DNA of 45,442 bases. It comes from Candidatus Kerfeldbacteria bacterium CG08_land_8_20_14_0_20_43_14 (lineage in GTDB: Bacteria; Patescibacteriota; Patescibacteriia; PEXW01). The DNA is taken from the NCBI GenBank assembly GCA_002774575.1, contig PEXW01000013.1:1-45442 (forward strand), written 5' to 3'. Positions 1,139-41,558 of this stretch are shown here, one piece after another; position 1 is the stretch's first letter; the number at the start of each line of letters is the position of its first letter. A program made the translations under genes and the position numbers. A model generated the notes under the pieces. That model was not told where the DNA came from. It did no database searches and saw nothing but the letters and a program-made list of their open reading frames with translations.

Positions 1139-1680
1139 GGTTTTGGCAGATTTTTAATGTTGACTGAAATAGAAAAACTCAAGTCAGTTTTTTTTGTTTG
1201 TAAAGGGAAAATCACATTGGTAACCAAATCGCTTTGCTGCAGAATTTTTTCATAATTAATATAAGCGTCTCTAGTGGTGGCTTTGCCGGAAAAAGCTAAG
1301 GTAGCGTTTTTTTGGTCAATAGCGATCGAATTTATTTTGATATTTTTCGGGGTTAGTGCGGCAAAACCACTGATTATCGGACTCCAGGCAACAAAACGTT
1401 TTTGCAAAGCCTGCAAAGCCATGATTTGCAGGTTAACTCCTTTTATCCGGTCAGTGATCGAAGTCTGACCTTGGGATTGGGTAAGCAGCTTGGTCCGCTC
1501 CGCCTCCAGTACCAAATCATTGGCCTTTTTGTTAAGCAGTTTAGTGCCGATAAAAATGCTTAAGCCCATGATTATTAACAGGCTGATTAAAGTAATAATA
1601 AAGGCCCTGATAAGTACAAAAATCATCTTGAGTTTAAGCTCATTTTTCATGGCAGGAGAAGTAAGATTGACTAGCATCAT
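1135..1680 (-). CDS. pilN: PilN-like (fimbrial assembly) bitopic membrane protein
   Basis: Short N-terminus, one TM helix (FIITLISLLIIMGLSIFIG) and a periplasmic-type domain. I moved the start to the ATG at 1680, which forms an ATGA overlap with the pilM stop (1679..1677). The track ORF extends to 1701. Confidence 0.6.
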   Translation of the reverse strand: MMLVNLTSPAMKNELKLKMIFVLIRAFIITLISLLIIMGLSIFIGTKLLNKKANDLVLEAERTKLLTQSQGQTSITDRIKGVNLQIMALQALQKRFVAWSPIISGFAALTPKNIKINSIAIDQKNATLAFSGKATTRDAYINYEKILQQSDLVTNVIFPLQTKKTDLSFSISVNIKNLPKP

Positions 1681-2756: not shown

Positions 2757-2760
2757 GTTA

Positions 2761-3978: not shown

Positions 3979-3981
3979 AGT

Positions 3982-5712
3982 TTATTCTTTGGTAACGCGC
4001 AAAACCTCTTCTATGGTGGTTATTCCGTATTTAGCTTTAATAAAGCCGTCTTCAGCCATGGTCAGCATGTCTTGTTTTTGCGCGGCACGGCGCAAGTCTT
4101 CGGTTGTGCATTTATTTAAAATTAAGTCGGCAATTTCGTGGGTTATCTCCAAAACTTCGTAAATACCGATTCTGCCTTTGTAGCCTTCGTGATTGCATTG
4201 CTTGCAGCCTTTGCCTCGGTAAAAAAGCAAAGATTCTATTGATGTTGAGGCTGAAATTATGGCGCCTTCCCGTTCAAGCGTGTTAAGAATGAATTTAACA
4301 TTAAATTGTTTATCCAGATCCTCAACCGCGGCTTTTGAAAGTGTGTAGCTTTGGATGCAGTGCAAACAGATTTTTCTGACAAGCCTTTGGGCCATCAGTA
4401 TGTTGGTGGTTGAAGCAATCAAAAAAGAAGGTACGCCCATTTCACCAAGCCTGGGCAGGGCAGTAACCGCGTCATTGGTATGGAGGGTGGAAAGAACCAA
4501 GTGCCCGGTCATGGCAGCGTTGGCAGCAATTTCCGCAGTCTCATTATCACGGATTTCACCAACCATGATGATGTTGGGGTCTTGCCGCAGAAGCGAGCGC
4601 AGGCCGTTGGCAAAAGAAAAGCCGATTTTTGGATTGACCTGGCTTTGATTAATTTTAGGCATCCGGTACTCAATCGGGTCTTCAACCGTGGAGATATTGA
4701 CTTCGGGTTTGTTTAAGATATTCAGGACGGTATAAAGCGTGGTGGTTTTGCCAGAGCCAGTCGGACCAGTCACCAAAATAATGCCATGGGGTTTTTTAAT
4801 ATTTCTTTTCAACATTTCCAAGGGCCTTGGCTGAAGACCAAGCTGTTCCAAAGTCAAAACTTGGGCTGATTCGTTTAACAAACGTAAAACCGCTTTTTCT
4901 CCGTCATAAACCGGTAAAATAGAAACGCGGAATGCCACTTTGTAGTCCTTAGAATTAATGGTAAAGCGGCCGTCCTGGGGCAGGCGGTGTTCGTCAATTT
5001 TCAAATTTGAAAGAATTTTAATTCTGGCAATTATGCCTGACTGGATATTTTTTGGCAGGGTCATGACCTGCTTTAAACGGCCGTCAATGCGGTATCGCAC
5101 GGCCAGTTCATTTTCCTGCGGTTCAATGTGGATATCCGATGCACTTTCAAAAATCGCGTATTCCAGCATGCTGTCGACAATCCTGACAATGGGCAAGTCT
5201 TCAGCCAGTTCACTTAATTTTTTTCCGCTACCATCTTCTTCAGATTCTTCGGTCTCCTTGGTAATTTCCTTAAAAGTTGCTGATAGACCTTTATGAAATT
5301 GGCTAAGTGCGTTTTTAATGCCAGAAGGCGTGGTAATGGCGATTTCCGGATTTAAGCCGGTTTTTTTCTTAATAAACTCAAAAGTCTGAAGATCTCTGGG
5401 ATCCAGAGTCGCCAACTTAATTTTTTTTGGGTCCATGTCATAAGCCACTACCTGATGAACTTGAACTAGGGGTTCGGGTACGGTCTCAAGTACATCTTTT
5501 CGAATGGTGGCCTGCTTCAAATCAACAAAAGGCAATCGATAGTAAGTAGCGATTGCTTCATAGAGGACATTTTCCGAAAGCAGATTTTCATCAATCAAAT
5601 ATCGCTCCAGCTCAATGTTTTGTTGCTCAATGGCGGTTAAGGCGGATTTGAGTCGTTCAGCCGGCAAAAGATTCGCCTCCTGGATTATTTTGGCAAGTAA
5701 TTTAGTTTTCAC
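3982..5712 (-). CDS. pilB: PilB / GspE-family type IV pilus assembly ATPase
   Basis: Has Walker A GPTGSGKTTT, VGEIRD, a tetracysteine-type CxxC...CxxC motif (CLHC...CKQC) and a GspE N-terminal domain. The apparent start codon is GTG. Confidence 0.9.
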   Translation of the reverse strand: MKTKLLAKIIQEANLLPAERLKSALTAIEQQNIELERYLIDENLLSENVLYEAIATYYRLPFVDLKQATIRKDVLETVPEPLVQVHQVVAYDMDPKKIKLATLDPRDLQTFEFIKKKTGLNPEIAITTPSGIKNALSQFHKGLSATFKEITKETEESEEDGSGKKLSELAEDLPIVRIVDSMLEYAIFESASDIHIEPQENELAVRYRIDGRLKQVMTLPKNIQSGIIARIKILSNLKIDEHRLPQDGRFTINSKDYKVAFRVSILPVYDGEKAVLRLLNESAQVLTLEQLGLQPRPLEMLKRNIKKPHGIILVTGPTGSGKTTTLYTVLNILNKPEVNISTVEDPIEYRMPKINQSQVNPKIGFSFANGLRSLLRQDPNIIMVGEIRDNETAEIAANAAMTGHLVLSTLHTNDAVTALPRLGEMGVPSFLIASTTNILMAQRLVRKICLHCIQSYTLSKAAVEDLDKQFNVKFILNTLEREGAIISASTSIESLLFYRGKGCKQCNHEGYKGRIGIYEVLEITHEIADLILNKCTTEDLRRAAQKQDMLTMAEDGFIKAKYGITTIEEVLRVTKE

Positions 5713-12612: not shown

Positions 12613-13982
12613 CTTTATTATCTGCTAAAAAAATTCATTTTATTGGCGTATCCGGCATAGGCACCTCGGCTATTGCCAAATGGGCTTTGGAAAATCATAA
12701 GCAAGTCAGCGGCAGTGATTTAACTTTGCAGCCGACTTCTAAATGGCTTATCGAAAACGGAGCAAATATATCAATCGGGGAACACAAAGAAGTTAATCTC
12801 CCTAGCGACAGTGATTTAGTAATTTACAGTAATGCTATTCCAGAAACCAATCCGGAATTACTGCAGGCAAAAAAATTGAAAATTCCTGCGGTTTCCTATC
12901 CTCAATCAATCGGTGAATTAATGGTTGGCAAAAAAGGGATTGCTATTGCCGGTACACACGGCAAGTCAACCACTACTGCTATTTTGGCTCAAATTTTGAT
13001 TGAAGCAAAAAAAGACCCGACTGTAATTGTGGGGACGCGGCTGGGAATTTTTGGCAATACCAATGAAAGGGTTGGTAAGGGTGAGGATTTGCTGGTTGAG
13101 GCAGACGAGTATAAAAGAGCCTTTTTGGATTACCGGCCGACTGTTGCGGCGATATTAAACATTGAACTTGACCACGTTGATGTTTATAAAGATGAAGCCT
13201 CGATCTTGGAAGCTTTTAAAAAATTTGCTGGAAAACTACCAATTTCTGGAAGTTTGATTCTTAACGCGCAAGATAAAAATTTTAGTGATATAAAAAAATC
13301 AACCCAAGCTGAAGTTTTAAGCTTTGGCTTTGAAAACACGGATATTATGGCCTTTGAAGTGAATACTGGAAAGGAAGGTGTTAATTTCAAAGTCAAAGGC
13401 CTTTACAACGGAACCATAGAGACAAAAATTTTTGGTCAACATAATGTTTTAAATATCTTGGCGGCTTTGGCAATTGCTTATGTGATGAAGATTGATTTCC
13501 AAATTGCCAAAGCCGCTGTTGAAAAATTCCCTGGCAGCTGGCGCAGGTTTGAAAAAAAGGGTGAGTGGCAAGACGCTACGGTAATTGATGATTATGCTCA
13601 CCATCCAACAGAGCTAAAAGCGACTTTGTTGGCTGCCAGGCAGGCTTATCCTGGGAAGAGGGTTGTTTGCGTTTTTCAGCCGCATCAAAAAATTCGAACC
13701 AAGCAATTTTTCAAAGAGTTTGTGGAAACTTTAAAGCTTGCTGACTTAAATATAATTCCGGAAATTTATCAGGTGGCTGGCAGAGAAGAAAATATCAAAA
13801 TTTCCAGCAAAGAAATAGTGGAAAAACTTGGAAATGGGGTCTATTATGCCAAAGATGTGGCTGATTCCGTTGAAATAGCAAAAAAAATAATCAAACCAGG
13901 GGATGTTATTTTAACAGTTGGCGCCGGTGATATCACGAATTTTTATCAATTGGCAAAAAAAATAAAACCCCTTGTTTTTTAG
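12609..13982 (+). CDS. murC: UDP-N-acetylmuramate--L-alanine ligase MurC
   Basis: Motifs IHFIGVSGIGTSAIA, GTHGKSTTT and DDYAHHP. The start forms an ATGA overlap with murG. Confidence 0.92.
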   Translation: MTLLSAKKIHFIGVSGIGTSAIAKWALENHKQVSGSDLTLQPTSKWLIENGANISIGEHKEVNLPSDSDLVIYSNAIPETNPELLQAKKLKIPAVSYPQSIGELMVGKKGIAIAGTHGKSTTTAILAQILIEAKKDPTVIVGTRLGIFGNTNERVGKGEDLLVEADEYKRAFLDYRPTVAAILNIELDHVDVYKDEASILEAFKKFAGKLPISGSLILNAQDKNFSDIKKSTQAEVLSFGFENTDIMAFEVNTGKEGVNFKVKGLYNGTIETKIFGQHNVLNILAALAIAYVMKIDFQIAKAAVEKFPGSWRRFEKKGEWQDATVIDDYAHHPTELKATLLAARQAYPGKRVVCVFQPHQKIRTKQFFKEFVETLKLADLNIIPEIYQVAGREENIKISSKEIVEKLGNGVYYAKDVADSVEIAKKIIKPGDVILTVGAGDITNFYQLAKKIKPLVF

Positions 13983-13993
13983 ACGAGGGGTTT
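13965..13993. terminator. hairpin spanning the overlapping convergent stop codons of murC and the antisense gene (possible bidirectional terminator)
   Basis: Stem aaacccc(13965..13971)/ggggttt(13987..13993) with a T-rich 15-nt loop. The murC TAG (13980..13982) and the minus-strand TAA (13981..13979) both sit inside the loop. Confidence 0.3.
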
Positions 13994-15016
13994 ATTAATA
14001 GCTCGATAAGAAAAAAGATCATCCGCGAATCCGACCGGAGTGCCTAGTTCGGACTGGTCAGAATAAACAAAACAGCGAAGTAAAACCAAATCGCAGGGCG
14101 CTTTAATATCATGCCGAATATTCCGCAAATGAGTTAAATAGCCAATTGTTGTTCCGGCTTTGACTATTTGTCCAAGCTGGAATAATGGTTGATTATTTTC
14201 ATGAGTAAAGAAAGTCCCAACATGTTCTGATTTTATTATCACAGAATTTACTCGAGCCAATAGCATTACGCTTGCGCCTTTTGCTATGCTAGTTTTCTCT
14301 AATGCTCCAAATTGTAGGATATACCCGCTAACTGGCGCAAAGACCGAAACTGGCTTGGATTTTTTTTCAACCGGCTGGATGTAGCCAAGCAAATCGTCTT
14401 TTTCAACATAATCCAGGATATACAAATTTCTCAATAATCTGGAATGTTTGCCTCGGTACCTTTTGTCGAGAATATCAACCGTGATATTTTGCGGTCCAAC
14501 TTTTGTTGACAGCCAGATTCCGCTGGCCGGGGCTAAAACTGGCACAACCGGCAAAATCCCGGTCAATTCTGGAATTGGCGGATTGCCATAAACCAGTCTG
14601 ACTTTAGAAGGGAAGGCGATGCCTTTTGCTCCTGGTGTGTTGGCATTTTCCGGAAGGTAGTAGATTAACTCATTAGGCTGGGTCACCAAAACTTGTTCTG
14701 GTGAAAGCAGGACGCCATTTGATCTTAAAGCTGGCGGGGGAATGTTTAGGGCGCGAGATTGTATCGCAGTATTATTCGCATAGATTTTTTTGCAAATAAT
14801 CTTTACGCCCAGCCATTTTGAACTAAGTTCCTCAACTGATGAATACTGAACTAATTTTATGTATCCCTTGATGCTATTAAACCTCGCTGCCAAAATTGAG
14901 ACTCCCAACAGGAAACCCAGTAGGCCGCAAATCAGCATTAAGACCCAGATATGGCTGGAAAACCACTCTGAAAGTATCCGTAAGTAATATTGTAAAGGCA
15001 ACTTTTTTACCTCCAA
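13979..15016 (-). CDS. membrane-anchored hypothetical protein with three barrel-sandwich-hybrid-like (lipoyl/HlyD/M23-type) motifs
   Basis: 345 aa with an N-terminal TM helix (VLMLICGLLGFLLGVSILA). The motif hydrophobic-AP-x-x-G/D occurs three times (VLAPASGIW, VFAPVSGYI, IKAPCDLVL), and there is also GQIVKAGTTIGYL. I see no catalytic motif. Confidence 0.55.
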   Translation of the reverse strand: MEVKKLPLQYYLRILSEWFSSHIWVLMLICGLLGFLLGVSILAARFNSIKGYIKLVQYSSVEELSSKWLGVKIICKKIYANNTAIQSRALNIPPPALRSNGVLLSPEQVLVTQPNELIYYLPENANTPGAKGIAFPSKVRLVYGNPPIPELTGILPVVPVLAPASGIWLSTKVGPQNITVDILDKRYRGKHSRLLRNLYILDYVEKDDLLGYIQPVEKKSKPVSVFAPVSGYILQFGALEKTSIAKGASVMLLARVNSVIIKSEHVGTFFTHENNQPLFQLGQIVKAGTTIGYLTHLRNIRHDIKAPCDLVLLRCFVYSDQSELGTPVGFADDLFSYRAINKPLV

Positions 15017-19063: not shown

Positions 19064-19495
19064 ATGGAACATCTAGCAATAATGAGAAAATCATGGGGAT
19101 TCACTGATAAAATTCTAAATGGTCAAAAGAAAATTGAATCCCGCTGGTATTCTGTAAAGTGCAAGCCCTGGAGTGCAATTAAACAAGGAGAAACGATTTA
19201 TTTTAAAGATTCAGGTGGGCCTGTAAGAGTAAAAGCAAAAGTTAGTAAAGTAATGCAATTTTCAAATTTGACTCCGAAAATAGTAAAAGAAATCCTAAAC
19301 GGATATGGCGAGCAAGATGGGATAGAAAAAGGAAAATCCCGCCAATTTTTTGAAAGATTCAAAGACAAGAAATACTGTCTGCTCATATTCTTAAAGAACC
19401 CTATTGAAATAAGGCCATTTGAGATTGATAAAATTGGATTTGGGATGATGTCGGCTTGGATTACAACCGACAATATATCCAGGATTAAGAAATAA
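19064..19495 (+). CDS. ASCH (PUA-like) domain protein
   Basis: 143 aa. The ILNGQKKIESRW motif and overall size fit the ASCH fold. It starts 3 nt after the secA stop. Confidence 0.55.
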   Translation: MEHLAIMRKSWGFTDKILNGQKKIESRWYSVKCKPWSAIKQGETIYFKDSGGPVRVKAKVSKVMQFSNLTPKIVKEILNGYGEQDGIEKGKSRQFFERFKDKKYCLLIFLKNPIEIRPFEIDKIGFGMMSAWITTDNISRIKK

Positions 19496-19555: not shown

Positions 19556-20077
19556 ATGAAAATTCCATTATTCAAACAGAAGAAAAATACTTGTGGACTA
19601 ACAGCCTTGAGAATGGTGTTGGCATATTTTGGTGAAAAAATTACAGAAAATGATCTTAAGAAACTTACTGGTAAGATAAGTCGATATGGTGTTAGAACGG
19701 TAAAATTGTCAGAGGCGGCGAAGAAACTTGGGTTTGAAACTGAATGTTTATCATATAACAAGTTACTCGCCGGCAGTAAGGCGAAGATCAAGAAGCCTGA
19801 TGTGAAGGTTGTATTAAAATATCTCTGGAGAAGAATACCGGTGATATTAGCCGTTCGGTCTTCGTTGCTCCACAATAAAAAACTGACTAAAATGGGACAC
19901 TTTATAGTCATTAGAGAATATAGAAATGGTTTTTTCCATTATAACGATCCTATGGATGCTAAAATTCATAAGATTAAATCAGAAGAATTTCGATTCGCTT
20001 GGTTTAATAATGTATTAGATTCGAGTGCTTATTTCCTTGCGATATGGCCGAAAAAATCTCTATGGGCTCACAAATGA
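19556..20077 (+). CDS. stand-alone peptidase C39-like cysteine protease
   Basis: Has Gln8 plus NTCGLTALRMVLAYFG (catalytic Cys), MGHFIVI (His) and YNDP (Asp). There is no fused ABC transporter and no signal peptide. Confidence 0.6.
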   Translation: MKIPLFKQKKNTCGLTALRMVLAYFGEKITENDLKKLTGKISRYGVRTVKLSEAAKKLGFETECLSYNKLLAGSKAKIKKPDVKVVLKYLWRRIPVILAVRSSLLHNKKLTKMGHFIVIREYRNGFFHYNDPMDAKIHKIKSEEFRFAWFNNVLDSSAYFLAIWPKKSLWAHK

Positions 20078-22174: not shown

Positions 22175-23869
22175 ATGTCTTCTCGCAAACGTCTTTGGAT
22201 AAATTTTATTTTAATAGTTTTGCTTGGTATTGCCGTCAGTTATATTGCTTTACCAAAAAAACTACTGCCAAGTTTTAAAGTTTTCGGCAAACAATTTGAT
22301 TTAAGGTTAGGCCTGGATTTACAGGGCGGCTCTTCTTTGGTATATAAAGCTGATACTTCAAAAATCGCCAGTGGAGATCAGGCTGCGGCTTTAGAAAGCG
22401 CGCGGAATGTCATTGAGACCAGGGTTAACGCTTTCGGCGTTTCCGAGCCAGTGGTTCAAACCAGCCAGGTTGGTAGTAGCTGGAGAATCATTGTTGAGCT
22501 GGCCGGGATTAAAGACATCAACCAGGCTATTAAAATGATCGGCGACACGCCGATTCTGGAGTTTAAAGAAGTCGCTGACAGCCAGCCACAAACTGAAGAG
22601 CAAAAAAAAGCTCAAGCCGCGGCTGATGCAGGCGTTAAGACAGAAGCTGAAAAAGTTTTGAAAGAAGCTTTGGCAAAAAATGCGGATTTTTCGGCGTTGG
22701 CCAATCAGTATTCCCAAGACCCAAGCAACACTGGAACCGACGGCCAAAAAAAGGGCGGTGATTTGGGCTTTGCCAAAAAAGGAACTTTTGTGGCTGAATT
22801 TGAAAAAGTGCTTTTTGATGAATTAAAAGATGGCCAGGTTTACCCAAAGCTGGTTAAAACACAATTCGGCTATCATATTATCAAAAGAATTGAAACTAAA
22901 ACTGTACAGGAGGAGGGTAAGGATGTGGTGGAAGTCAGAGGCGCTCATATTTTATTTGCAGTCAGTACCGAGCAAAACCAGGTGAATTTTAAAACAACCG
23001 GTCTTTCAGGTAAGCAGTTGAAAAGGGCGGGTGTGGCCTTTAATCAGTCAACTGGCGAACCAGAAGTTACCCTAAGTTTTGACAGCGAAGGAACAAAACT
23101 GTTTGCCGAAATCACCAAAAGGAATATCGGCAAAAATGTAGCAATCTTTTTGGACGGGCAGATAATCAGCAACCCAACAGTCAATCAGGAAATAACCGGC
23201 GGCGAAGCAGTCATTACAGGCAATTTTACTTTGAAAGAGGCCAAAGACTTGGCCAAGAGGCTTAATGCCGGCGCCTTGCCTGTTCCAGTCAGTTTAATCA
23301 GCCAGCAAACTGTTGGTGCAACTTTGGGCAATGATTCTGTGGCCAGAAGCATTTTTGCCGGACTTTTAGGAGTAATTGTTGTTTCGCTCTTTATGATTAT
23401 TTTCTACCGACTGCCAGGCTTGCTGGCCACTATTGCTTTACTGCTATACACCCTGATAGTTATAGCGATCTTCAAACTTTGGCCAGTAACCTTGACCTTG
23501 GCCGGCATCGCGGGCTTCATTCTTTCCATTGGCATTGCTTTGGATGCCAACATATTAATTTTTGAAAGAACCAAAGAAGAGCTTCACAATGGCAGGCCTT
23601 TGGATGTGGCTATTGAAGAAGGCTTTAAACGGGCCTGGCTTTCAATCAGAGATTCAAATGTTTCCAGCATTATAACTTCAGTTATCTTAATTTGGTTTGG
23701 TTCCAGCATTGTTAAAGGCTTTGCCATTACCCTGCTGATTGGTATTGTGGTTAGTTTGTTTTCAGCCATAACCGTTACCCGTATGTTATTGAGGCTCGTG
23801 ACTAATTTGAACTTTGCCAGAAATCCAAAATGGTTTGGGCTTCGGGATTTGTTTAAACCTAAAGATTAA
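22175..23869 (+). CDS. secD: protein translocase subunit SecD with an inserted parvulin-type PPIase domain
   Basis: SecD N-terminal TM and P1 base (LGLDLQGGSSLVY, VNAFGVSEPVVQ). The P1 head follows (AIFLDGQIISNPTV, RLNAGALPVPV), then the six-TM C-terminal bundle. Residues ~134-266 match PpiC/parvulin (NADFSALANQYSQDP...KKGGDLGFAKKGTFVAEFEKVLF...TQFGYHIIK). Confidence 0.9.
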   Translation: MSSRKRLWINFILIVLLGIAVSYIALPKKLLPSFKVFGKQFDLRLGLDLQGGSSLVYKADTSKIASGDQAAALESARNVIETRVNAFGVSEPVVQTSQVGSSWRIIVELAGIKDINQAIKMIGDTPILEFKEVADSQPQTEEQKKAQAAADAGVKTEAEKVLKEALAKNADFSALANQYSQDPSNTGTDGQKKGGDLGFAKKGTFVAEFEKVLFDELKDGQVYPKLVKTQFGYHIIKRIETKTVQEEGKDVVEVRGAHILFAVSTEQNQVNFKTTGLSGKQLKRAGVAFNQSTGEPEVTLSFDSEGTKLFAEITKRNIGKNVAIFLDGQIISNPTVNQEITGGEAVITGNFTLKEAKDLAKRLNAGALPVPVSLISQQTVGATLGNDSVARSIFAGLLGVIVVSLFMIIFYRLPGLLATIALLLYTLIVIAIFKLWPVTLTLAGIAGFILSIGIALDANILIFERTKEELHNGRPLDVAIEEGFKRAWLSIRDSNVSSIITSVILIWFGSSIVKGFAITLLIGIVVSLFSAITVTRMLLRLVTNLNFARNPKWFGLRDLFKPKD

Positions 23870-23872
23870 AAT

Positions 23873-24775
23873 ATGTACGCTATTATTCAGAAAAGAAGAT
23901 ATTTTTACAGCCTCTCTCTGCTTTTGTTGATCCCAGGTATTTTATCAATGATCATCTGGGGATTTAAATTTGGCATAGATTTTACTGGCGGATCATTACT
24001 GCGTTTGGAATTTTCAAAAAATGTTCCTGCCACGGAAATAATCCAAAGCGCGGCCAAAGACGCTGGCATTAAAAATCTTTCTATTCAAACAACCGAGGAA
24101 AAGGGAATAAGCATGAGATTTGAACCCATTACTAATGACCAAAAGGAAACAATAATCAGCTCACTCAAAAAATACGATGAAAAAATAGTGGAAAGTAGTT
24201 TTGAGACCATAGGTCCAACAATTGGGTCGGAATTAAAAAGAAAATCAATAACCGCCATAGCTATTGTTTTAATTCTGATAGTTTTATATATCAGCTGGGC
24301 CTTCAGAAAAGTATCAGTCGGCCCGGTTCCATCCTGGATTTACGGGGTCAGTGGCATTGTCGCTTTGGTTCACGACCTGGTTATGGTGGTAGGGGCATTC
24401 TCAATTTTTGGGCATTTTTTTGGAATTGAAATAGATGCCCTTTTTGTAACTGCTTTGCTGACTATATTGGGCTTCTCAGTCCATGACACCATAGTTGTTT
24501 ATGATCGAATCCGCGAGAGATTAATTGGCTCGGCTGGCAAAACTTACGAAGAGGTCGTTAATGAAAGTATGAATCAGACTATGGTCAGATCAATCAATAC
24601 TTCCATGACAGCATTGCTAATTTTGTCCGCCTTGGTTTTGTTTGGCGGAGGCACCATAAGGAATTTTGTGCTAGCCCTTTTAATTGGAATTGCTTCAGGG
24701 ACTTATTCTTCAATTTTTGTAGCTTCGCCTATTTTAGTAACCTGGAACAATTTTAGGCAAAGAAGAAAAACTTAA
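23873..24775 (+). CDS. secF: protein translocase subunit SecF
   Basis: Has the GIDFTGG motif and a six-TM RND-like bundle. It starts 3 nt after secD. Confidence 0.9.
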   Translation: MYAIIQKRRYFYSLSLLLLIPGILSMIIWGFKFGIDFTGGSLLRLEFSKNVPATEIIQSAAKDAGIKNLSIQTTEEKGISMRFEPITNDQKETIISSLKKYDEKIVESSFETIGPTIGSELKRKSITAIAIVLILIVLYISWAFRKVSVGPVPSWIYGVSGIVALVHDLVMVVGAFSIFGHFFGIEIDALFVTALLTILGFSVHDTIVVYDRIRERLIGSAGKTYEEVVNESMNQTMVRSINTSMTALLILSALVLFGGGTIRNFVLALLIGIASGTYSSIFVASPILVTWNNFRQRRKT

Positions 24776-24826
24776 AAACAAACCGCTCGCTAATCATTGG
24801 CATGTATTTTATTTTAGACTAAAAAC

Positions 24827-24855
24827 TTGACACAATAACAATAAAGTGCTATATT
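24827..24855 (+). promoter_or_regulatory. near-consensus sigma70 promoter with extended -10
   Basis: TTGACA (24827..24832), a 17-nt spacer ending in TGc, then TATATT (24850..24855), 28 nt upstream of the ATG at 24884. Confidence 0.6.
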
Positions 24856-24883
24856 AGTAAAAGCTACTAAATACGCTTTATTT

Positions 24884-26008
24884 ATGGATAGTGATAATCA
24901 AAATACCGGTTCAATTTTAGACCGAGTATTAAGCCAAAAACAAACTGAAGAAATTGAGCATTTCAACCCGGTTGAAGTCGTTTCTAATATCTTGAAAATT
25001 TTGTCAACGAGAGAAGAAGATGTTTTGCGCAGGCGCTATGGCATAAACGGTAAAGAGGCAGAGACATTGGAACAAATTGGAGAAATTTACAAAGTCACCC
25101 GGGAACGGATCAGACAGATTGAAACCGAGGCGATAAACAAAATTAAAAAGTCTAATCAGACTGGCGGTCAAATTCATCATTTATCTGACGCAATTATTGG
25201 CATAATAAATAACCATGGGGGAATAATGAAAGAAGAGAACTTTATGAGAGAAATTTTAGATCTTCAGGATGACAGACAAACCACCAGGGCTGCGACACTT
25301 TTCATCATCCGTTTTTTGTTTTCTGACAAGCTGAAGCCCCTTTCCGTTGAAGGTGATTTTCATATGGCCTGGCAATTAAAAACCGCGCCCACGCACTTAG
25401 TTGCAGACACAATTCAACAAGCGGAAGAGATATTAAGTTCTGGAAACAAGCCGCTAAAACTCAATGAACTTTTGGAAAAAATCAGACAATCAAAATATGG
25501 TGAAGAGCACAAATTTCAATTAACTGATGAGGCTATTTCTTCGTATATAGAAATAAGTACCAAGCTTGCCAAGAATCCTTACGGCGAATATGGGTTAGCT
25601 GAATGGGGGACAATAGTTCCCAAAAGAATGAATGACAAAATTTATTTAGTTTTGAAAAAAGCCGGCAAGCCTTTGCATTTCAACGAAATAACTAAATTGA
25701 TCAACGAAACAAAGTTCGACCATCGAACTGCTTATTCGCCAACTGTGCATAATGAACTAATTTTAAATGACCAGTATGTTTTAGTCGGCCGTGGTATTTA
25801 TGCTTTAAAAGAATGGGGCTATAAGCCTGGGGTGGTAGCCGATATCCTGATTGATATATTAAAAAAGAGCAACAAGCCGATGAAAAAGGAAGAATTGGCA
25901 GATGAAGTATTAAAACAAAGATTAGTAAAAAAGAATACTATTTATCTTGTTCTAACTAACCGAAAAAAATTCAACAAGCTGCCAAGCGGCGAATATACTC
26001 TTGTTTAG
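24884..26008 (+). CDS. sigma70 region-4 HTH fused to tandem HARE-HTH-like winged helices (no sigma regions 1-3)
   Basis: Residues ~40-88, EEDVLRRRYGINGKEAETLEQIGEIYKVTRERIRQIETEAINKIKK, form a sigma region 4.2 signature. Three or four units follow that resemble the RNAP delta-subunit/HARE-HTH pattern. The clearest is KIYLVLKKAGKPLHFNEITKLI...NDQYVLVGRGIYALKEWGY; another ends ...YGEYGLAEWG. Confidence 0.7.
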   Translation: MDSDNQNTGSILDRVLSQKQTEEIEHFNPVEVVSNILKILSTREEDVLRRRYGINGKEAETLEQIGEIYKVTRERIRQIETEAINKIKKSNQTGGQIHHLSDAIIGIINNHGGIMKEENFMREILDLQDDRQTTRAATLFIIRFLFSDKLKPLSVEGDFHMAWQLKTAPTHLVADTIQQAEEILSSGNKPLKLNELLEKIRQSKYGEEHKFQLTDEAISSYIEISTKLAKNPYGEYGLAEWGTIVPKRMNDKIYLVLKKAGKPLHFNEITKLINETKFDHRTAYSPTVHNELILNDQYVLVGRGIYALKEWGYKPGVVADILIDILKKSNKPMKKEELADEVLKQRLVKKNTIYLVLTNRKKFNKLPSGEYTLV

Positions 26009-26032
26009 TCATTCAAAACAAACTAATCAAAC

Positions 26033-27574
26033 ATGGTAATTGATCTTTCGGCCATGGCTGATGCTTTCCGAGCTTCGGCTGGCAATCCAGTTTTAATGAT
26101 GTGGTTTATCTTCCAAAATGGAGGCTGGCTTGCTGTTGTTATCACTTTTGTAATCGGTTTTAAATATGTTTGGAGAGATTTTATTAACCGCCGGTACATA
26201 AACAAATACTACGCCGGCCATTATGTGCTTTTAGCCATTGATGTGCCAAAGGACAGTGAACAAACGCCAAAAGCGGCTGAACAGATGTTCGCGCATTTTA
26301 ACGGCATTTCTAAACAGCCGATTTTTCCGGAAAAATGGGGTCTGCCTTTCACGGGATTTTTTGGTTATGGTTTCATTCCGCCAAGCATGTCAGTTGAAAT
26401 AGTCAGTTTAGGTGGTTATGTGCAGTTTTTTGTCAGGTGCTTGATAGTCCATCGAGAAATTATTGAATCAGCCATTTACGCGCAATATCCCGACGCGGAA
26501 ATCACTGAAGTCGAAGATTATGTCGATTTAATGCCCAAACCAAGCGAATTGCCGCATGAGGAGTGGGATTGTTGGTCAGCGCAAATTCAGCTTTTTCAGC
26601 CGGATTGCTATCCAATCCGTACTTACCCCATGTTTGAACACAGCATGTCCCAAAAGCTGATAGACCCCATGGCATCGCTTCTGGAAATTATGAATCGCAT
26701 TAGTCCGGATGAGCAAATTTGGCTGCAATGGGTTTTACAGCAGGAGGAATTCCCGTCGATTTGGCGGGAAAAAGCCAAGCAAATTGTCAGTAAACTTATT
26801 GGCAGGAAAAGTGGGGCAAAGGCCAGTCCTTTTGAAATACCTTTGCAGGTGGTTAAAGGCGTAAGGGAATCTATCACCGCATCTTTGCTGCCTATTACTC
26901 ACGAACAGGAAAAGTTTAAAAAGGATGAACCCCCAACCCTGATGTTACATTTGTCGCCTGGAGAAAGAGACACCGTTACTCAGCTTCAGATGAAGCTGAC
27001 AAAAATTGCCTTTAAGGTAAAGGGCAGATTTATTTATTGGGGCAAAACCACGCCTGGTCCTGACGGCATTAAGCCCTACAGCAAAGCCAGGGGAGTGAAC
27101 GGCGTAAATGGAGCTTTAAGGCAATTTGCTTTGCAAGATTGTAACTTTTTTACTTTCAACGCAAAGACAAAGACCAGTGATATTGTGGTACTAAAAGAAC
27201 AACGTCTGCTTTGGCGAAGGCAAAGAAATTTAATTAATTACAGGTTCAGATCAATCTGGCGCGGCCGTAAACCCATGTATTTAAACATCGAGGAGCTGGC
27301 AACAATTTTTCATTTCCCGACCATTGATGTTAAGGCTGGGCAAGTGCAAAAAACTGAAACTAAACGATCAGGCGCGCCGTCTACTTTACCTTTTGAAAGG
27401 CCTTTGCCTATTCAAAAAGTCCATTCAGTATCTTTGCAACCAAAGGCCGGTCCGCCAATCGGTCTGCCTACTGAACCTCCAAAAACTTCGCCGGCAGTTC
27501 AACCACAGCAAAATGTTCAGCAGCCTGCCATTAAAGAACCCGAGGTGCCGGTTAATCTACCTTTTATAGAATAA
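26033..27574 (+). CDS. membrane-anchored protein of unknown family, partner of the downstream ATPase
   Basis: 513 aa with an N-terminal hydrophobic segment (VLMMWFIFQNGGWLAVVITFVIGF). A ~400-aa globular part follows with no motif I recognise, then a Pro/Gln-rich tail. The gene ends 1 nt before the ATPase start. Confidence 0.6.
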   Translation: MVIDLSAMADAFRASAGNPVLMMWFIFQNGGWLAVVITFVIGFKYVWRDFINRRYINKYYAGHYVLLAIDVPKDSEQTPKAAEQMFAHFNGISKQPIFPEKWGLPFTGFFGYGFIPPSMSVEIVSLGGYVQFFVRCLIVHREIIESAIYAQYPDAEITEVEDYVDLMPKPSELPHEEWDCWSAQIQLFQPDCYPIRTYPMFEHSMSQKLIDPMASLLEIMNRISPDEQIWLQWVLQQEEFPSIWREKAKQIVSKLIGRKSGAKASPFEIPLQVVKGVRESITASLLPITHEQEKFKKDEPPTLMLHLSPGERDTVTQLQMKLTKIAFKVKGRFIYWGKTTPGPDGIKPYSKARGVNGVNGALRQFALQDCNFFTFNAKTKTSDIVVLKEQRLLWRRQRNLINYRFRSIWRGRKPMYLNIEELATIFHFPTIDVKAGQVQKTETKRSGAPSTLPFERPLPIQKVHSVSLQPKAGPPIGLPTEPPKTSPAVQPQQNVQQPAIKEPEVPVNLPFIE

Positions 27575-27575
27575 A

Positions 27576-29216
27576 ATGCTTTTCGACCCAAAAGAAATAA
27601 ATGTTTTCGCTCAAACAAATTACCGGGGTTATTACCGGCGTTTTGGCATTAAAGTTGACGATCGCAGGAGGCACATGTACTTAATCGGAAAAACCGGCAT
27701 GGGCAAGTCCACGGTTATGGAAAGGATGATTGTCAATGATTTAAATGCGGGACATGGCTTGGCCCTGGTGGATCCGCATGGAGATTTGGTTGAGAAAATT
27801 TTGGATTACGTACCTTCGGAAAGGATTAATGATGTGGTTTATTTTAATCCGTCAGATGTCGAGTATCCCATAGGCTTTAATGTCCTGGAGGCTGTTGATG
27901 CCACCCAAAGGCATTTAGTCGCTTCGGGTTTAATGGGCGTGTTTACAAAAATTTGGGAAGGAGTTTGGAGCGCCAGAATGGAATATATTTTGAACAACAC
28001 AATTCTAGCCCTGCTGGAATATCCCGGGTCTACCATGCTTGGCATTGCCCGCATGCTGGTTGATTCCAGATTCCGAACGCGGGTTCTGACTAAAGTATCC
28101 GACCCGATTGTCAAGGGCTTTTGGGTGGATGAATTCGCCAACTACAATGACAAATTCAGGAATGAAGCGGTTGCGCCAATACAAAATAAAGTTGGTCAGT
28201 TTTTGTCTAGCGCCATCATTCGCAATATAGTCGGTCAGGCAAAAAGCACCATTGACCTGCGCCATATCATGGACAGCAAAAAAATACTGCTTTTAAATTT
28301 GGCCAAAGGCAGAATTGGCGAAGATAATTCGGCTTTGCTTGGAGCCATGATGATCACCAGGCTGCAATTAGCCGCCATGAGCCGGGTTGACATGCCTGAA
28401 ACCGAGCGGCCAGACTTTTTCTTGTATGTTGATGAGTTTCAGAATTTCGCCACGGAAAGTTTTGCCAATATCTTGTCCGAAGCCAGAAAATACCGATTGA
28501 ATTTAACCATCGCTCATCAATATATTGAACAACTAGATGAAACAGTTGCTCCGGCGGTTTTCGGCAATGTTGGAACTATTATGGCTTTCCGGGTTGGCGG
28601 GGCAGATGCGGAGTTTTTGGAAAAGGAATTTTTTCCGACCTTTACCCAGGTTGATTTAGTCAACCTGCCGAAATATGAAGTTTATTTGAAATTAATGATT
28701 GACGGCGTGGCTTCCCAGCCATTTAGCGCCGCCACCCTGCCGCCGGCAGAACTGTTACCAACTAATAATCGAGAAAAAGCCATTAAAGTTTCCAGAGAAA
28801 AATATGCTGAAAACCGTGCCGAGGTCGAAGAAAAAATTTTGCGATGGAGCGGAGTCGAAGATGTTTATCGAGCTTCGGCTGAAGAAGAAAATCAGGCAGT
28901 TGAAAAAGAGGAATCTATTTACCGGGCAGAAGGAAAAAGGAAAAGACCGCCAAAAAATATGTTCCAAAGCCCGGAAGTAACTGTGGAGCCGGTAATAAAT
29001 GTTCCGGAGGCCCCGGCTATAAGTCTGAATGAGCTAACCAAACAGACCCAGCCCCAGCCTTTTAGAGGAAACCGGCCATATCATCGCAATCAAAATTTTC
29101 GACCTAATCATCCGCCAGAACGGAGGCAAGAAAACTTCCCAGTTATCCAGCCACCGCAGCAAAAACCGCAGCCCAAAGATACTGAAATTCCTTTTGGTAA
29201 AACAGTCAGGTTTTAA
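27576..29216 (+). CDS. FtsK/HerA/VirD4 (type IV coupling protein)-class P-loop ATPase without a TM anchor
   Basis: Walker A LIGKTGMGKST, then LVDPHGDL, Walker B FFLYVDEFQNF and LTIAHQ. There is no N-terminal hydrophobic segment. The C-terminal ~80 aa are Pro/Gln/Arg/Asn-rich. Confidence 0.8.
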   Translation: MLFDPKEINVFAQTNYRGYYRRFGIKVDDRRRHMYLIGKTGMGKSTVMERMIVNDLNAGHGLALVDPHGDLVEKILDYVPSERINDVVYFNPSDVEYPIGFNVLEAVDATQRHLVASGLMGVFTKIWEGVWSARMEYILNNTILALLEYPGSTMLGIARMLVDSRFRTRVLTKVSDPIVKGFWVDEFANYNDKFRNEAVAPIQNKVGQFLSSAIIRNIVGQAKSTIDLRHIMDSKKILLLNLAKGRIGEDNSALLGAMMITRLQLAAMSRVDMPETERPDFFLYVDEFQNFATESFANILSEARKYRLNLTIAHQYIEQLDETVAPAVFGNVGTIMAFRVGGADAEFLEKEFFPTFTQVDLVNLPKYEVYLKLMIDGVASQPFSAATLPPAELLPTNNREKAIKVSREKYAENRAEVEEKILRWSGVEDVYRASAEEENQAVEKEESIYRAEGKRKRPPKNMFQSPEVTVEPVINVPEAPAISLNELTKQTQPQPFRGNRPYHRNQNFRPNHPPERRQENFPVIQPPQQKPQPKDTEIPFGKTVRF

Positions 29217-29236
29217 GGCAATTAAGGTATGGCTTG

Positions 29237-29340
29237 ACCCCGCACCACTTTTCATCAAAACACCACTCAAATGTATAGACATTTATTGCGAAAAATATCT
29301 TTAACTAATATCAAATTTTGTTTGGAAAGTGGTGCGGGGT
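29237..29340. repeat. 15-bp perfect inverted repeat, extendable to ~24 bp, enclosing an internal hairpin
   Basis: accccgcaccacttt (29237..29251) is the exact reverse complement of aaagtggtgcggggt (29326..29340). The pairing can extend inward (29252..29260 with 29316..29325, including a wobble pair and a small internal loop). An inner hairpin is aaatgt(29269..29274)/acattt(29279..29284). Confidence 0.7.
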
Positions 29341-29368
29341 TGATTTAATATTTTAAAATTGTTAAGGT
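29340..29368 (+). promoter_or_regulatory. candidate promoter of the glycosylation operon (alternative reading: AAGG as a weak RBS)
   Basis: TTGATT (29340..29345), a 17-nt spacer ending in TGt, then TAAGGT (29363..29368). The ATG lies at 29375, only 6 nt after the -10 element, implying a leaderless mRNA. The same AAGG could instead be a ribosome-binding site. Confidence 0.35.
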
Positions 29369-29374
29369 TCAGCT

Positions 29375-30325
29375 ATGAAGATAAACTCCATATCGTTTGT
29401 TGCACCTGCATTTAACGAAAGGCCAAGCTTGCTAGAATTAATCGCAGAGCTCCATCAAACCGGTGCGAAACTGGATATTCCTTATGAGATTATCATTGTT
29501 GATGATGGGTCAAACGATGGCAGTTTTGAATTTTTGAAAAACCAGGCTGGAGTAGATAAAAAATTGCACGTCATTAATCATAGAAAAAAACTGGGCAAAG
29601 CCACTGCTTTGTATTCAGCTTTTCAAAAAGCCAGGGGCGAAATAATCATAACGGTTGACGCGGATTTGCAGAATGATCCGGCGGAAATCCCCAAAATGCT
29701 GGCAAAACTAGATGAAGGCTATGATGTGGTGAGCGGCTGGAAATTTGACCGGCCAGATAACTTGGAAAAGCGGCTTCCATCCAAATTTTTCAACTTCGTA
29801 ACCAGAAAATTAAGCGGTTTGCAACTTCATGATTTTAACTCGGCAATTAAAGTTTACACTCAAGAATCCGCCCGATCGCTAAAATTGTACGGTGAACTGC
29901 ATCGCTATATCCCAGTCTTGTTAAGCAGCCAAGGATTCAAAATTACCGAAGTGCCGACTCATACCCGCCAACGAAAGTATGGCGAAACTAAATATAAGGG
30001 TAAAAGATATTTAAGGGGTCTGCTAGATTTATTAACGGTTTTATTTTTAACCAGGTATGATCGTCGGCCCTTGCACCTATTTGGCGGGCTGGGTTTATTT
30101 TTAGGCCTTGTCGGCACGATAGTTTTAATCTATCTGGCGATTTTGCATTTCGGATTTAATCAGTCAATTGGCACCAGGCCGTTATTGATGTTCGGAATTT
30201 TTGTGGCCTTGGTTGGTCTTCAGTTGACTTTTACCGGTCTATTGGCTGAACTTTTGGTCCGATCAGAAAACCATAATAATCTCCCCATACGCGCAGAATG
30301 GAATGGCGATGAACCTTTGGTTTAA
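29375..30325 (+). CDS. GT2 polyprenyl-phosphate sugar synthase (DPM1/GtrB-like) with two C-terminal TM helices
   Basis: Motifs IIVDDGSNDGS and DADLQNDP (DxD), plus C-terminal helices (LHLFGGLGLFLGLVGTIVLIYL, LLMFGIFVALVGLQLTFTGLL). Confidence 0.85.
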   Translation: MKINSISFVAPAFNERPSLLELIAELHQTGAKLDIPYEIIIVDDGSNDGSFEFLKNQAGVDKKLHVINHRKKLGKATALYSAFQKARGEIIITVDADLQNDPAEIPKMLAKLDEGYDVVSGWKFDRPDNLEKRLPSKFFNFVTRKLSGLQLHDFNSAIKVYTQESARSLKLYGELHRYIPVLLSSQGFKITEVPTHTRQRKYGETKYKGKRYLRGLLDLLTVLFLTRYDRRPLHLFGGLGLFLGLVGTIVLIYLAILHFGFNQSIGTRPLLMFGIFVALVGLQLTFTGLLAELLVRSENHNNLPIRAEWNGDEPLV

Positions 30326-33762: not shown

Positions 33763-34581
33763 TTATGGCTTAAATGAAGATTGCCCCCTTAGCTTTTTCC
33801 AGGCAAAGACAATAATTACAATCAGCAGCACCACACCGCCGATTATCAGAATAAGGCCGGTTCTGCCGTCGCTTGCATTTGTTTTAGTAGATTCTGTATC
33901 AGAATTTGCATTCAGGTTTGTCAGTCCAAGATCATCAGTATTAGTTAAATCTTCATTGGTGTTAGCATTCAGGTTTGAATTAACGCTGGCAGAATCATCC
34001 AGGCTGACATTCAGGTTTTTATTAGTATTAGTGTTTGAATTTTTATTCGAATTAGCATTCTTATTGGTATTAGCGTTAGTGTTTTTATTAGCATTTAGAT
34101 TTGAATTTGCGTTTTTATTGGTATTGGTATTGATGTTGGTTTTTTTATTCGTGTTTAAATTTGTTGATGAATTGATATTTGAATTTGAAGAAGTATTGGT
34201 GTTAGTGGTAGCCGCCAAGGTAGTAAAGGTTGTATCTGTACTAACAGCCTCGTTTCCGGCCGCGTCCTTGGACCGGATTCTAAAATGATATGGAGTTTCA
34301 GCAATGAGCCCTAAAAGCGTAACTTCATGGCTTAAAGTGTATGCACCATCACCCAAGGTATTGCCGTAGACATCATTTAGGCCAAAATCAACATAACTAG
34401 TGGAAATTTCATTGGTTACCCAGGAGATTTTAGCAGTGTTTTTGGCTATTCGGCTGATAGAAACGCTGGAAATCACCGGCTTAGTCGCGTCAGCCGGGCT
34501 ATTAACCGAACCATTAACCTGTGCCTGGACTGGCAAACTTGCCAAAAACCATAAAACAATAATAATTAATAATTTTTTCAT
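33763..34581 (-). CDS. surface protein: signal peptide, FN3-like domain, Asn/Thr-rich low-complexity stalk, C-terminal TM anchor
   Basis: Signal peptide (LLIIIVLWFLASLPVQA). The FN3-like part has AKISWVTNEISTSYVDFG...YHFRIRSKDAAGNE. About 100 aa of N/T/K/S repeats follow, then the C-terminal helix LILIIGGVVLLIVIIVFAW and KKLRG. Confidence 0.65.
   Translation of the reverse strand: MKKLLIIIVLWFLASLPVQAQVNGSVNSPADATKPVISSVSISRIAKNTAKISWVTNEISTSYVDFGLNDVYGNTLGDGAYTLSHEVTLLGLIAETPYHFRIRSKDAAGNEAVSTDTTFTTLAATTNTNTSSNSNINSSTNLNTNKKTNINTNTNKNANSNLNANKNTNANTNKNANSNKNSNTNTNKNLNVSLDDSASVNSNLNANTNEDLTNTDDLGLTNLNANSDTESTKTNASDGRTGLILIIGGVVLLIVIIVFAWKKLRGQSSFKP
33898..34209 (-). repeat. degenerate short tandem repeats encoding the Asn-rich stalk
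   Basis: The plus strand is made of imperfect att/agt/gtt-rich 6-12 nt units (ttagtatt, ttggtatt, ttagcatt). These translate on the minus strand as NTNKNANSN-type repeats. Confidence 0.7.
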
Positions 34582-40175: not shown

Positions 40176-41558
40176 TTATAAATTGACATTATTCAGGTTA
40201 TCACCGCGCGGATGCAGTTCAGCCACCCTTTGATTGACCACCAAAACATTTTTCATGTTATAACCAAATTGCTTGAATAATTCTCTGGAAGGAATGCCCC
40301 GCCGCAAACCATTGGATATGACATATATGCCGGCATCTCCCTTAACCCTGACTAATTCACCATCTCGCAGCTTCAAAGCTTCGCCCTTTTCATATTGACT
40401 TAATTCTTGTTGGGTAATAGTAATGCTTGGCTTTCGATTTGGAAATCTAGATTTTAAAATGGCCTTATCCAGAATTGGATACCAAACGCCTTGTTCAATC
40501 CAAACAATTCCGCTGCCCTTAACCTGAATCAGAGCCCCGGCCGGATAAGCACTGGTGTTTGAAATTTGCACGCCATCAAGATAGGGCGCAGCATCTTCAA
40601 AAGACACATCCACCACTTCTTCAGGATTGAAACCAAGGTTCCGGAAAACATCCTGGGATTTTATTAGTCTTTTTTCATCTCCGCTTAACAGATAAATTGA
40701 CATATCCGGGGTTCTGACCAGGGAATAATTCGGAAGTTTGATGTCTGCGCCGCGCGGATAATTTTCCAAAGCTTCCTGGCTGATTGGCAAAATTTTGGAA
40801 TAATCTCCGAATCTGGTTACGAACGCTGAACGACTTTGTATCACACGCCTTTCGCCATTTTGAATAAACCAAACAGCTTGGATTTTGCCAACTCGGACCA
40901 AGGAACCATCGGGATAAATTTTGGCAAACCAGGTATTGTATAAATTGGAAAAATTAAAATTGCCGTTGTAAACATGAGGCGTGTAATTATAAAGGCCTGC
41001 CGTGGCTTGGTTTTCAATAGTTACTGTTGTTTGTTTTGAACCGTTTAAGTCAGTGAAGGTGTAGGTTGAACCAATTTTATAAGTGTACTGGCTCGGATAA
41101 TTCAGATACTGCCTGAACTGCCAGGTGGCAAAGTCCATTTGTCTGTAAAAACCTGCGGCCTTGCTGCTGCAGCCGCCGCTGTCCGGACAGCCATAGCCCA
41201 TGGCATAATCCAAAAGTTTTTGCGAGGGGGAGGGATAAGTCAGCATACTTGATTCTTTTTGCAAAGTTACCAAAATCACCTTAGGATTAATATTGTAGAG
41301 TTTGGCAATCTCTGCTATAGCCTCGCTAACCGGTTTACTAACTTTATTAAAATCTTCAATCAGCCGAGTGCCTAAAGTGCCTCCGCGCCTGACCAGGAAA
41401 TTTTGAACATCATTGACGGTCATACTGCCTGAATCGGTAAATTCTTCGTCGCTAATAAGTCTCCCGGGATTAAAAGCGGCTAGGGCAAAATTCGGCAAGA
41501 TAACTAAAATCAGGGCCAAACAAAAAGTTATAAATCCTTTTGAGCTTTTTTTCAACAT
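40176..41558 (-). CDS. secreted cell-wall-associated protein: conserved N-terminal domain plus four ~55-aa repeats
   Basis: Signal peptide present. The N-terminal domain has NPKVILVTLQKESSML...AMGYGCPD, a pattern I associate with uncharacterised wall-hydrolase-like domains. Four repeats of the type G.LVRV.G...VY.I.NG.RR.I.S...F...G follow (residues ~217-455). Confidence 0.6.
   Translation of the reverse strand: MLKKSSKGFITFCLALILVILPNFALAAFNPGRLISDEEFTDSGSMTVNDVQNFLVRRGGTLGTRLIEDFNKVSKPVSEAIAEIAKLYNINPKVILVTLQKESSMLTYPSPSQKLLDYAMGYGCPDSGGCSSKAAGFYRQMDFATWQFRQYLNYPSQYTYKIGSTYTFTDLNGSKQTTVTIENQATAGLYNYTPHVYNGNFNFSNLYNTWFAKIYPDGSLVRVGKIQAVWFIQNGERRVIQSRSAFVTRFGDYSKILPISQEALENYPRGADIKLPNYSLVRTPDMSIYLLSGDEKRLIKSQDVFRNLGFNPEEVVDVSFEDAAPYLDGVQISNTSAYPAGALIQVKGSGIVWIEQGVWYPILDKAILKSRFPNRKPSITITQQELSQYEKGEALKLRDGELVRVKGDAGIYVISNGLRRGIPSRELFKQFGYNMKNVLVVNQRVAELHPRGDNLNNVNL

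Follow-up and report, generated by a model that had tools for sequence, protein, structure and literature searches.

A split VirD4-type coupling protein with conserved gene partners on the chromosomes of Patescibacteria

What kind of machine is encoded by three adjacent co-directional genes for a DNA-binding protein, a membrane-anchored protein and an anchor-less ATPase in Candidatus Kerfeldbacteria bacterium CG08_land_8_20_14_0_20_43_14? These genes, hereafter g1, g2 and g3, are located in contig PEXW01000013.1, analyzed from position 1 to 45,442 (the window; all coordinates refer to it and, unless marked otherwise, to its + strand). According to the list of open reading frames (ORFs) and to domain matches, g1 (24884-26008) encodes a 374-aa cytoplasmic DNA-binding protein, followed by g2 (26033-27574, 513 aa) and g3 (27576-29216, 546 aa). 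The initial annotation, made from the sequence alone, described the trio as an undescribed module with g2 as a novel, unassignable anchor. Our analysis shows that the trio is a split, chromosomally fixed type IV coupling protein (T4CP) with conserved partners and not a new class of machine, g2 being assigned as its N-terminal half and g3 as its ATPase half. Of the initial proposal, the conserved neighbourhood stands, while the novelty of the g2-g3 pairing does not, as it is a known T4CP type divided in two.

Patescibacteria are host-dependent for building blocks, nucleotides among them, and their chromosomal type IV secretion system (T4SS) is essential in the sole species tested, though the T4SS clusters usually lack a coupling protein. 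A survey of 3,035 Patescibacteria genomes found 5,713 homologues of VirD4-type T4CPs in 2,918 of them, just 148 of these homologues being near virB4 (Quinonero-Coronel et al. 2025, PMC12102498). These orphan homologues, near-universal, present in about two copies per genome, located away from virB4 and with no function known in that study, almost certainly include g3. The main text of that paper does not mention the g2 partner, the split and fused paralogs, or the links with secDF and with a sigma-4/HARE-HTH protein. Hence the orphan T4CP homologues of Patescibacteria are already known, and the split architecture and the conserved partners appear not to have been described so far; our literature search yielded nothing relevant on PF26449, the family annotated on g2 homologues, or on sigma/HARE-HTH proteins in these bacteria. 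As shown below, the orphan T4CP of the phylum has a conserved two-gene split, coexists with a fused paralog, exceeds SecDF in conservation and is tied to a sigma-like DNA-binding protein, which makes the role of this near-universal ATPase more testable.

Two halves of one coupling protein

The assignment of g3 as an anchor-less VirD4-type coupling-protein ATPase with an all-alpha domain is made because family models, profile comparison and structural search agree. The Pfam scores of g3 exceed the cut-offs (in brackets) for TrwB_AAD_bind, 41 bits (20.5), T4SS-DNA_transf, 29.6 bits (20.1), and TraG-D_C, 25.5 bits (22), and its best NCBIfam match is the VirD4-like CD1115 conjugal transfer family. 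A profile built from 45 homologues of g3 and compared with PDB sequences retrieves only TrwB and DotL at E<=0.001. The top Foldseek matches of the AlphaFold2 (AF2) model of g3 (predicted local distance difference test, pLDDT, 68) are DotL, TrwB and Cag-beta, followed by HerA, and the alignment with TrwB spans about 430 columns with a TM-score of 0.53. The motifs quoted in the initial annotation, GKTGMGKST (residues 38-46, Walker A, nt 27687-27713), DPHGDL (residues 66-71), FFLYVDEFQNF (residues 281-291, Walker B, nt 28416-28448) and AHQ (residues 313-315), are all present, and all four are invariant in the 45 homologues.

In the AF2 model, an all-helical block (residues ~109-233, nt 27900-28274) lies between Walker A and Walker B, being the predicted all-alpha domain, and a disordered tail rich in Pro, Glu and Gln (nt 28863-29213) ends in the conserved peptide IPFGKTVRF. 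Among the features by which a T4CP is recognized, g3 has the nucleotide-binding domain, as seen from Pfam, the profile, Foldseek and the invariant motifs, and is predicted to have the all-alpha domain. It lacks an N-terminal anchor of its own, which comes in trans from g2, and it is not co-encoded with VirB4 or a relaxase in the 45-kb window. Hydropathy analysis finds no hydrophobic membrane segment in g3 or g1, in agreement with the earlier placement of g3 as an anchor-less ATPase of the VirD4/HerA clade.

Other ATPase classes fit g3 less well. VirB4 is rejected, as neither sequence models nor Foldseek prefer VirB4 models or structures, the latter being absent from the top 50 Foldseek matches. 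FtsK/SpoIIIE is rejected for the lack of a match to FtsK_SpoIIIE or the gamma domain in Pfam or NCBIfam. HerA is rejected as well, since HerA structures rank beneath T4CPs, the DUF87 match is weak (30.6 bits, above the Pfam cut-off), and there is no gene for a partner nuclease.

Two side observations concern the g3 family. In two lineages, an additional paralog of g3, likewise without an anchor, directly follows g2-g3 (L038:13732-15144, 470 aa, and L066:4332-5711, 459 aa; 39-42% identity). The closest relative of g3 outside Patescibacteria (L084, 395 aa, 40% identity) is encoded by an alphaproteobacterial plasmid of Sulfitobacter (NZ_CP081110.1:99994-101181), as a lone gene between a recombinase and transposases, with no g2-like partner.

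The N-terminal helix of g2 (residues ~20-46, nt 26090-26170; Kyte-Doolittle 1.74; AF2 helix 19-60) is the sole transmembrane segment of the trio, and in this respect the initial annotation was correct. The helix is followed by a charged flank of +4/-1, which predicts an N-out, C-in orientation, and because of this flank the following alpha/beta domain (residues ~62-440, nt 26216-27352), assigned to the PF26449 family through its homologues, is predicted to be cytoplasmic. A disordered linker separates this domain from the conserved peptide PVNLPFIE (nt 27545-27571) at the C-terminus. Both g2 and g3 have conserved C-terminal peptides after disordered linkers, PPxNLP[FIV] in g2 and xPG[QE]hh[KR]F in g3, and these likely are docking motifs. 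Some g2 variants (in the loci L051, L053, L056, L061 and L073) end in ...KFG and not in PPxNLPx, and none of them has an adjacent g3; dnaG-rpoD comes after the variant in L051, and a similar pair of ORFs is found in L073.

Direct searches with the g2 sequence against local Pfam, NCBIfam, PADLOC, PDB sequences and PLSDB plasmids returned nothing, and only structure and profile-profile comparisons were informative. The family is large, with 2,210 homologues of g2 in a database clustered at 90% identity, and its profile retrieves 3,095 clusters at 50% identity. The PF26449 domain is precomputed on most of the homologues listed at 39-45% identity to g2 (phmmer E 3e-116 and lower), though not on most of the closest ones. 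In view of these homologues, and of the fusions described below, we interpret g2 as the N-terminal domain belonging to the PF26449-marked subtype of T4CPs, and not as a new anchor, contrary to the initial annotation. In annotation, g2-like proteins should no longer be labelled hypothetical.

The fold of this domain possibly resembles the N-domain of VirB4. In the Foldseek comparison of the AF2 model of g2 (pLDDT 78.8, predicted TM-score 0.73) with the PDB, the top 13 matches are all TrwK/VirB4 of plasmid R388, with E from 1.5e-5 to 4.5e-4 and a TM-score of ~0.3, while a better structural match is gp156 of Bacillus phage G (E 1.6e-17, TM-score 0.45). The similarity with TrwK suggests a VirB4-like two-domain layout for g2 and g3 together. 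However, g2 has no sequence similarity to VirB4 in the search of PDB sequences, and g3 groups with VirD4-type proteins, so that g2 is not regarded as part of a VirB4 N-domain and ATPase protein, the likeness being one of fold only, at this TM-score. The likeness suggests that one VirD4-type lineage keeps a VirB4-like N-domain, which bears on the divergence of the two T4SS ATPases.

Fused relatives, which connect the two genes, are decisive for the assignment of g2. A tblastn search of plasmids with g3 leads to an 812-aa T4CP of Embleya, whose C-terminal half matches g3. A search with this protein retrieved about 120 Streptomycetaceae proteins of ~800 aa named 'type IV secretory system conjugative DNA transfer'. 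Nearly all of these T4CPs combine PF26449 and PF10412 in a single chain, most of them also having PF01935 and/or PF12696. The profile of g2 aligns with the N-terminal half of the 833-aa T4CP of Bacillus methanolicus plasmid pBM69 (hhalign probability 96%, E 1.9e-9). Since the PF26449 domain is fused to T4CP ATPase domains in relatives, we interpret g2-g3 as a split coupling protein, its two genes being two halves of one T4CP type. A 272-aa plus 412-aa arrangement on a B. subtilis plasmid was not used as a further case of fission, as it is near-identical to the fused pBM69 protein (781 bits) and may be a frameshift.

The plasmid T4CPs of the PF26449 type (~800 aa in Streptomyces and Embleya; the 833-aa 'DUF87' protein of pBM69) have the same modules in the same order as g2 plus g3, that is, the N-domain (with a transmembrane helix in the actinobacterial ones), the nucleotide-binding domain, the all-alpha domain and TraG-D_C; with their C-terminal halves g3 shares 27-32% identity, and g2 aligns to their N-terminal halves. 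The plasmid proteins are single polypeptides encoded beside a replication-relaxation relaxase, PrgI/VirB3, a VirB4-like ATPase and a cell-wall hydrolase, and because of these neighbours they are considered ordinary conjugative coupling proteins, whereas g2-g3 is split, chromosomal, devoid of relaxase or T4SS neighbours and far more conserved. The initial annotation had named membership in an ordinary conjugative T4SS as an outcome that would speak against its proposal, and this is partly the case, as the relatives are T4CPs of conjugative plasmids.

Patescibacteria themselves encode a fused paralog, of 852 aa in L033:1137-3695 and 813 aa in L052:532-2973. It is located among dnaX and uppS, ~7 kb upstream of the split pair, and is far less conserved than g3. 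In BLASTP of these two proteins, the N-terminal half resembles g2 and the C-terminal half resembles g3, with 43% identity, and the profile of g2 aligns with the N-terminal half of the former with an hhalign probability of 99.8% and E 1.6e-28. The alignments of g2 to fused proteins end at LNxEELAxLxHFP, just before the ATPase. The presence of split and fused paralogs fits the about two T4CP copies per genome reported in the survey.

Fused forms also exist in phages. Proteins of 800-900 aa from Bacillus phages G, JL and Slash match g2 structurally, and the same proteins match g3 by tblastn; since they match both, we consider them to be fused forms of the g2-g3 family. The fused g2-like/g3-like proteins of large Bacillus phages, G (gp156, JN638751.1:91915-93309), JL, Slash, CP-51 and SPO1-like ones, are uncharacterized and provide the best structural matches to g2, some of them being misannotated, one example being 'lipid A export protein MsbA'.

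Two-part T4CPs are not without precedent. For TraI/TraJ of pIP501 (PMC12857230, PMC13037476), the proposal is that TraJ, a VirD4-like ATPase with no anchor, is held at the membrane by another protein, the membrane protein TraI, as g3 would be by g2. By its description TraI is set apart, being small and having two transmembrane segments, whereas the 513-aa g2 has a large conserved cytoplasmic T4CP N-domain.

Conservation of the neighbourhood and the place of g1

A scan with the g2 profile, one genome per species, yielded more than 559 loci, of which the best 80 were analyzed, all of them looking like Patescibacteria; the counts in this paragraph refer to the testable loci among these 80. g3 is directly downstream of g2 in 53 of 68 loci, the gap between them having a median of 5 nt and mostly ranging from -8 to +10 nt (n = 59), which fits translational coupling of two subunits. 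Where g3 is absent, glycosyltransferases or dnaG-rpoD are found downstream of g2. In 46 of 75 loci g2 is preceded by g1, a median of 89 nt separating the two, and a co-directional secF lies no more than 3 kb upstream in 44 of 58. In view of these adjacency counts and gap lengths, g2-g3 is a firm unit, and g1 is a frequent, lineage-specific companion.

In the window the trio follows the same order, being preceded by secD-secF (22175..24775), conserved upstream neighbours of the module identified by Pfam annotation of the orthologues in the nearest relative, L001. The intergenic gaps are 24 nt between g1 and g2 and 1 nt between g2 and g3 (TAA-A-ATG), exactly as initially reported. Identity across lineages is 62-77% for g3 and 33-45% for g2, and for SecD it is ~50-60% among the closest lineages. 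In Patescibacteria the split T4CP is chromosomal, very strongly conserved and located in the housekeeping neighbourhood secD-secF-[g1]-g2-g3, and most likely is vertically inherited and no part of a mobile element; the synteny check suggested in the initial annotation was borne out by the counts for g3 and g1.

The trio is preceded by a sigma-70-type promoter with an extended -10 element (24827..24855, TTGACA-17-TGcTATATT). It is the top-scoring site within 24600-29500, with 11/12 consensus matches plus the extended TG. The same architecture, TTGAC[A/T]-17-TGnTAnnnT, recurs ahead of the g1 orthologue in most of the 46 loci compared from other species, scores of at least 10/12 being found in 30 of the 46 loci and in 7 of 46 shuffled sequences. 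Because of this recurrence the promoter, noted already in the initial annotation, is not a chance match; the loci having it include L001 (6736-6851), L015 and L031. A second, weaker promoter-like site (25971-25999, TCAACA-17-TATACT, 9/12) is located inside g1, near its 3' end and 33 nt ahead of the g2 start, and could give g2-g3 a separate transcript.

As proposed initially, g1 is a sigma-region-4/HARE-HTH protein. It comprises sigma-70 region 4 (residues 37-89, nt 24992-25150; Sigma70_r4, 51 bits) and two HARE-HTH stretches, the best at residues 248-311 (nt 25625-25816; 46 bits), and the C-terminal tail has a weak winged-helix match. No relative of its C-terminal part is found among PDB sequences. 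Across 31 orthologues the recognition helix of sigma region 4.2, TRERIRQIE, does not vary, and in sigma-70 this helix reads TTGACA. The invariant helix, together with the TTGAC[A/T] conserved upstream of g1, suggests that g1 autoregulates via its own promoter.

It is quite conceivable, though somewhat less likely than not, that g1 acts outside the machine, as a transcription factor that binds promoters or associates with RNA polymerase (having sigma region 4 and a delta-like HARE-HTH domain) and that regulates the operon or merely shares its promoter. Besides the helix and the conserved promoter, this is favoured by the score of g1 against the N-terminal model of the RNA polymerase delta subunit (41.9 bits at a cut-off of 42), by the loose g1-g2 gap as compared to the g2-g3 one, by the lack of g1 in 29 of 75 loci, and by the plasmid T4CPs, which have no adjacent g1-like gene. 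On the other hand, g2 follows directly even distant full-length homologues of g1 (10 of 12 testable loci, when considered from the g1 side), and in eight loci g1 and g2 are kept together with g3 located elsewhere, a linkage above what is expected of casual neighbours. In view of such persistent linkage, g1 might be an adaptor of the motor.

Possible roles of the split motor

Most likely, g2-g3 forms a membrane-tethered motor, presumably hexameric, that either serves the chromosomal T4SS or has been exapted elsewhere. The analysis establishes the homology, the fusion of the two domains in relatives, the synteny, the coupling of the genes and their conservation; the complex, its hexameric form, its link to the T4SS and its substrate are inferred. 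A gene fission at the linker between the T4CP N-domain and the ATPase would have produced g2 and g3, which, being translationally coupled, would come together again on the cytoplasmic side of the membrane as a tethered hexamer. On balance, we lean towards the view that this motor recruits and energizes a macromolecular substrate for the chromosomal, relaxase-less T4SS of the phylum encoded elsewhere, whose clusters usually have no T4CP gene; the essential T4SS cluster of S. epibionticum lacks a recognizable coupling protein or relaxase (Wang et al. 2023, PMC10633639). In such a scheme g1, transcribed from the conserved promoter, would be either a regulator of the operon or a nucleic-acid-binding partner of the motor. 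The split T4CP is thus a concrete and genetically tractable candidate for the choice and energizing of the substrate, or for a conjugation motor put to new use.

Several observations weigh against this view. In S. epibionticum, the T4CP homologue is reported to be non-essential and the T4SS essential (PMC12102498), and genomes with T4CP homologues (2,918) outnumber those with VirB4 (2,417) in the same survey. Neither the window nor the 10 kb around g2 in the 80 species loci has a VirB4 or other T4SS gene, the loci having been searched by tblastn with two VirB4-like queries from monoderms, a weak test. The conservation of g3 above SecD is odd for an accessory secretion component. Moreover, g2 has no adjacent g3 in 15 of 68 loci, the TM-score of its VirB4-like match is low, and its hhalign match with the Streptomyces N-domain profile is weak (E 7e-4), those with a single Embleya T4CP sequence and with a Bradyrhizobium T4CP being not significant.

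The main alternative, which we put forward tentatively, is that the split T4CP is an exapted translocase independent of T4SS, working alone or with another envelope machine and with g1 as its nucleic-acid-recognition subunit. It could possibly serve DNA or RNA uptake or export, or chromosome handling at division, in analogy to the FtsK motor and its gamma domain. Exaptation was raised by the authors of the survey (PMC12102498), where T4CP homologues are nearly universal (2,918/3,035), exceed VirB4 and are almost never near virB4; it also agrees with the conservation of g3 above both SecD and SecF, with the housekeeping neighbourhood, with the robust linkage to the multi-HTH protein g1 seen from both the g1 and g2 sides, and with the fused relatives in large Bacillus phages, outside any T4SS. 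However, no channel component is linked to g2-g3, its nearest characterized relatives are conjugative T4CPs adjoining relaxases, g1 is absent upstream of g2 in 39% of loci, and FtsK is reported from at least some Patescibacteria.

A stronger version of exaptation, which we find unlikely, would make the whole trio a near-essential, Patescibacteria-specific, T4SS-independent nucleic-acid machine, its motor having been captured from ancient monoderm conjugation and split, and g1 selecting DNA or RNA; it might take up nucleic acids of the host or handle the chromosome in these ultra-small cells.

Finally, it is very improbable that the trio represents the remains of an integrated conjugative or mobilizable element or an anti-phage defence module, as, despite the PADLOC matches of g3 to mad8 of the MADS system (E 3.2e-15) and to HerA and the occurrence of g3 relatives in 583 plasmid and 34 phage records, its chromosomal site beside secDF is kept over many species and classes under very strong purifying selection, integrase, relaxase and partner defence genes are lacking, as is any compositional anomaly, g2 has no PADLOC match, and both the element and the defence-island interpretations are rejected by genomic context and conservation. 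Membership in MADS in particular is rejected, since g1 and g2 do not match MADS proteins and neither a methyltransferase nor other mad genes are found nearby.

Other features of the window

In GC content the trio resembles its surroundings in the window. Apart from the trio, Pfam scans of 28 large ORFs reveal housekeeping genes only, namely PilM/PilC/PilB, the mraY-murD-ftsW-murG-murC-murB cluster, secA, secD, secF, glycosyltransferases, mnmA, fmt, def, priA and gltX, with no VirB4, relaxase, integrase or phage genes in the 45 kb, in accordance with the initial annotation of the flanks.

Downstream of g3 there is a hairpin (29234..29343). Its inverted arms enclose an AT-rich spacer of 72 nt and are flanked by TTGA direct repeats, and it has a tail rich in T. 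The arms (29238-29252 and 29325-29339) had been described as a perfect 15-bp inverted repeat; the repeat is present, but it is perfect only over 14 bp (29238-29251 and 29326-29339), the fifteenth pair being G.U. The hairpin folds far better than shuffled sequences (z = -5.1). It was not called by a scan for canonical intrinsic terminators, it is absent from the nearest relative, L001, and an Rfam search of the whole window gave zero families. Because the terminal inverted repeats are flanked by TTGA direct repeats, the layout looks like the footprint of a miniature inverted-repeat element as much as like a terminator.

No tie between the T4CP module and the pilus genes of the window, with which it had initially been suggested to cooperate, turned up in this analysis. 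The type IV pilus block (593-5712, - strand) consists of genes for the PilB ATPase (3982-5712), PilC (2761-3978) and PilM (1677-2756), and of two small ORFs without a Pfam match (593-1701). Four sizeable ORFs among the housekeeping genes belong to no Pfam family (13979-15016, - strand; 19064-19495, + strand; 33763-34581, - strand; 40176-41558, - strand), and a C39-type peptidase is encoded at 19556-20077.

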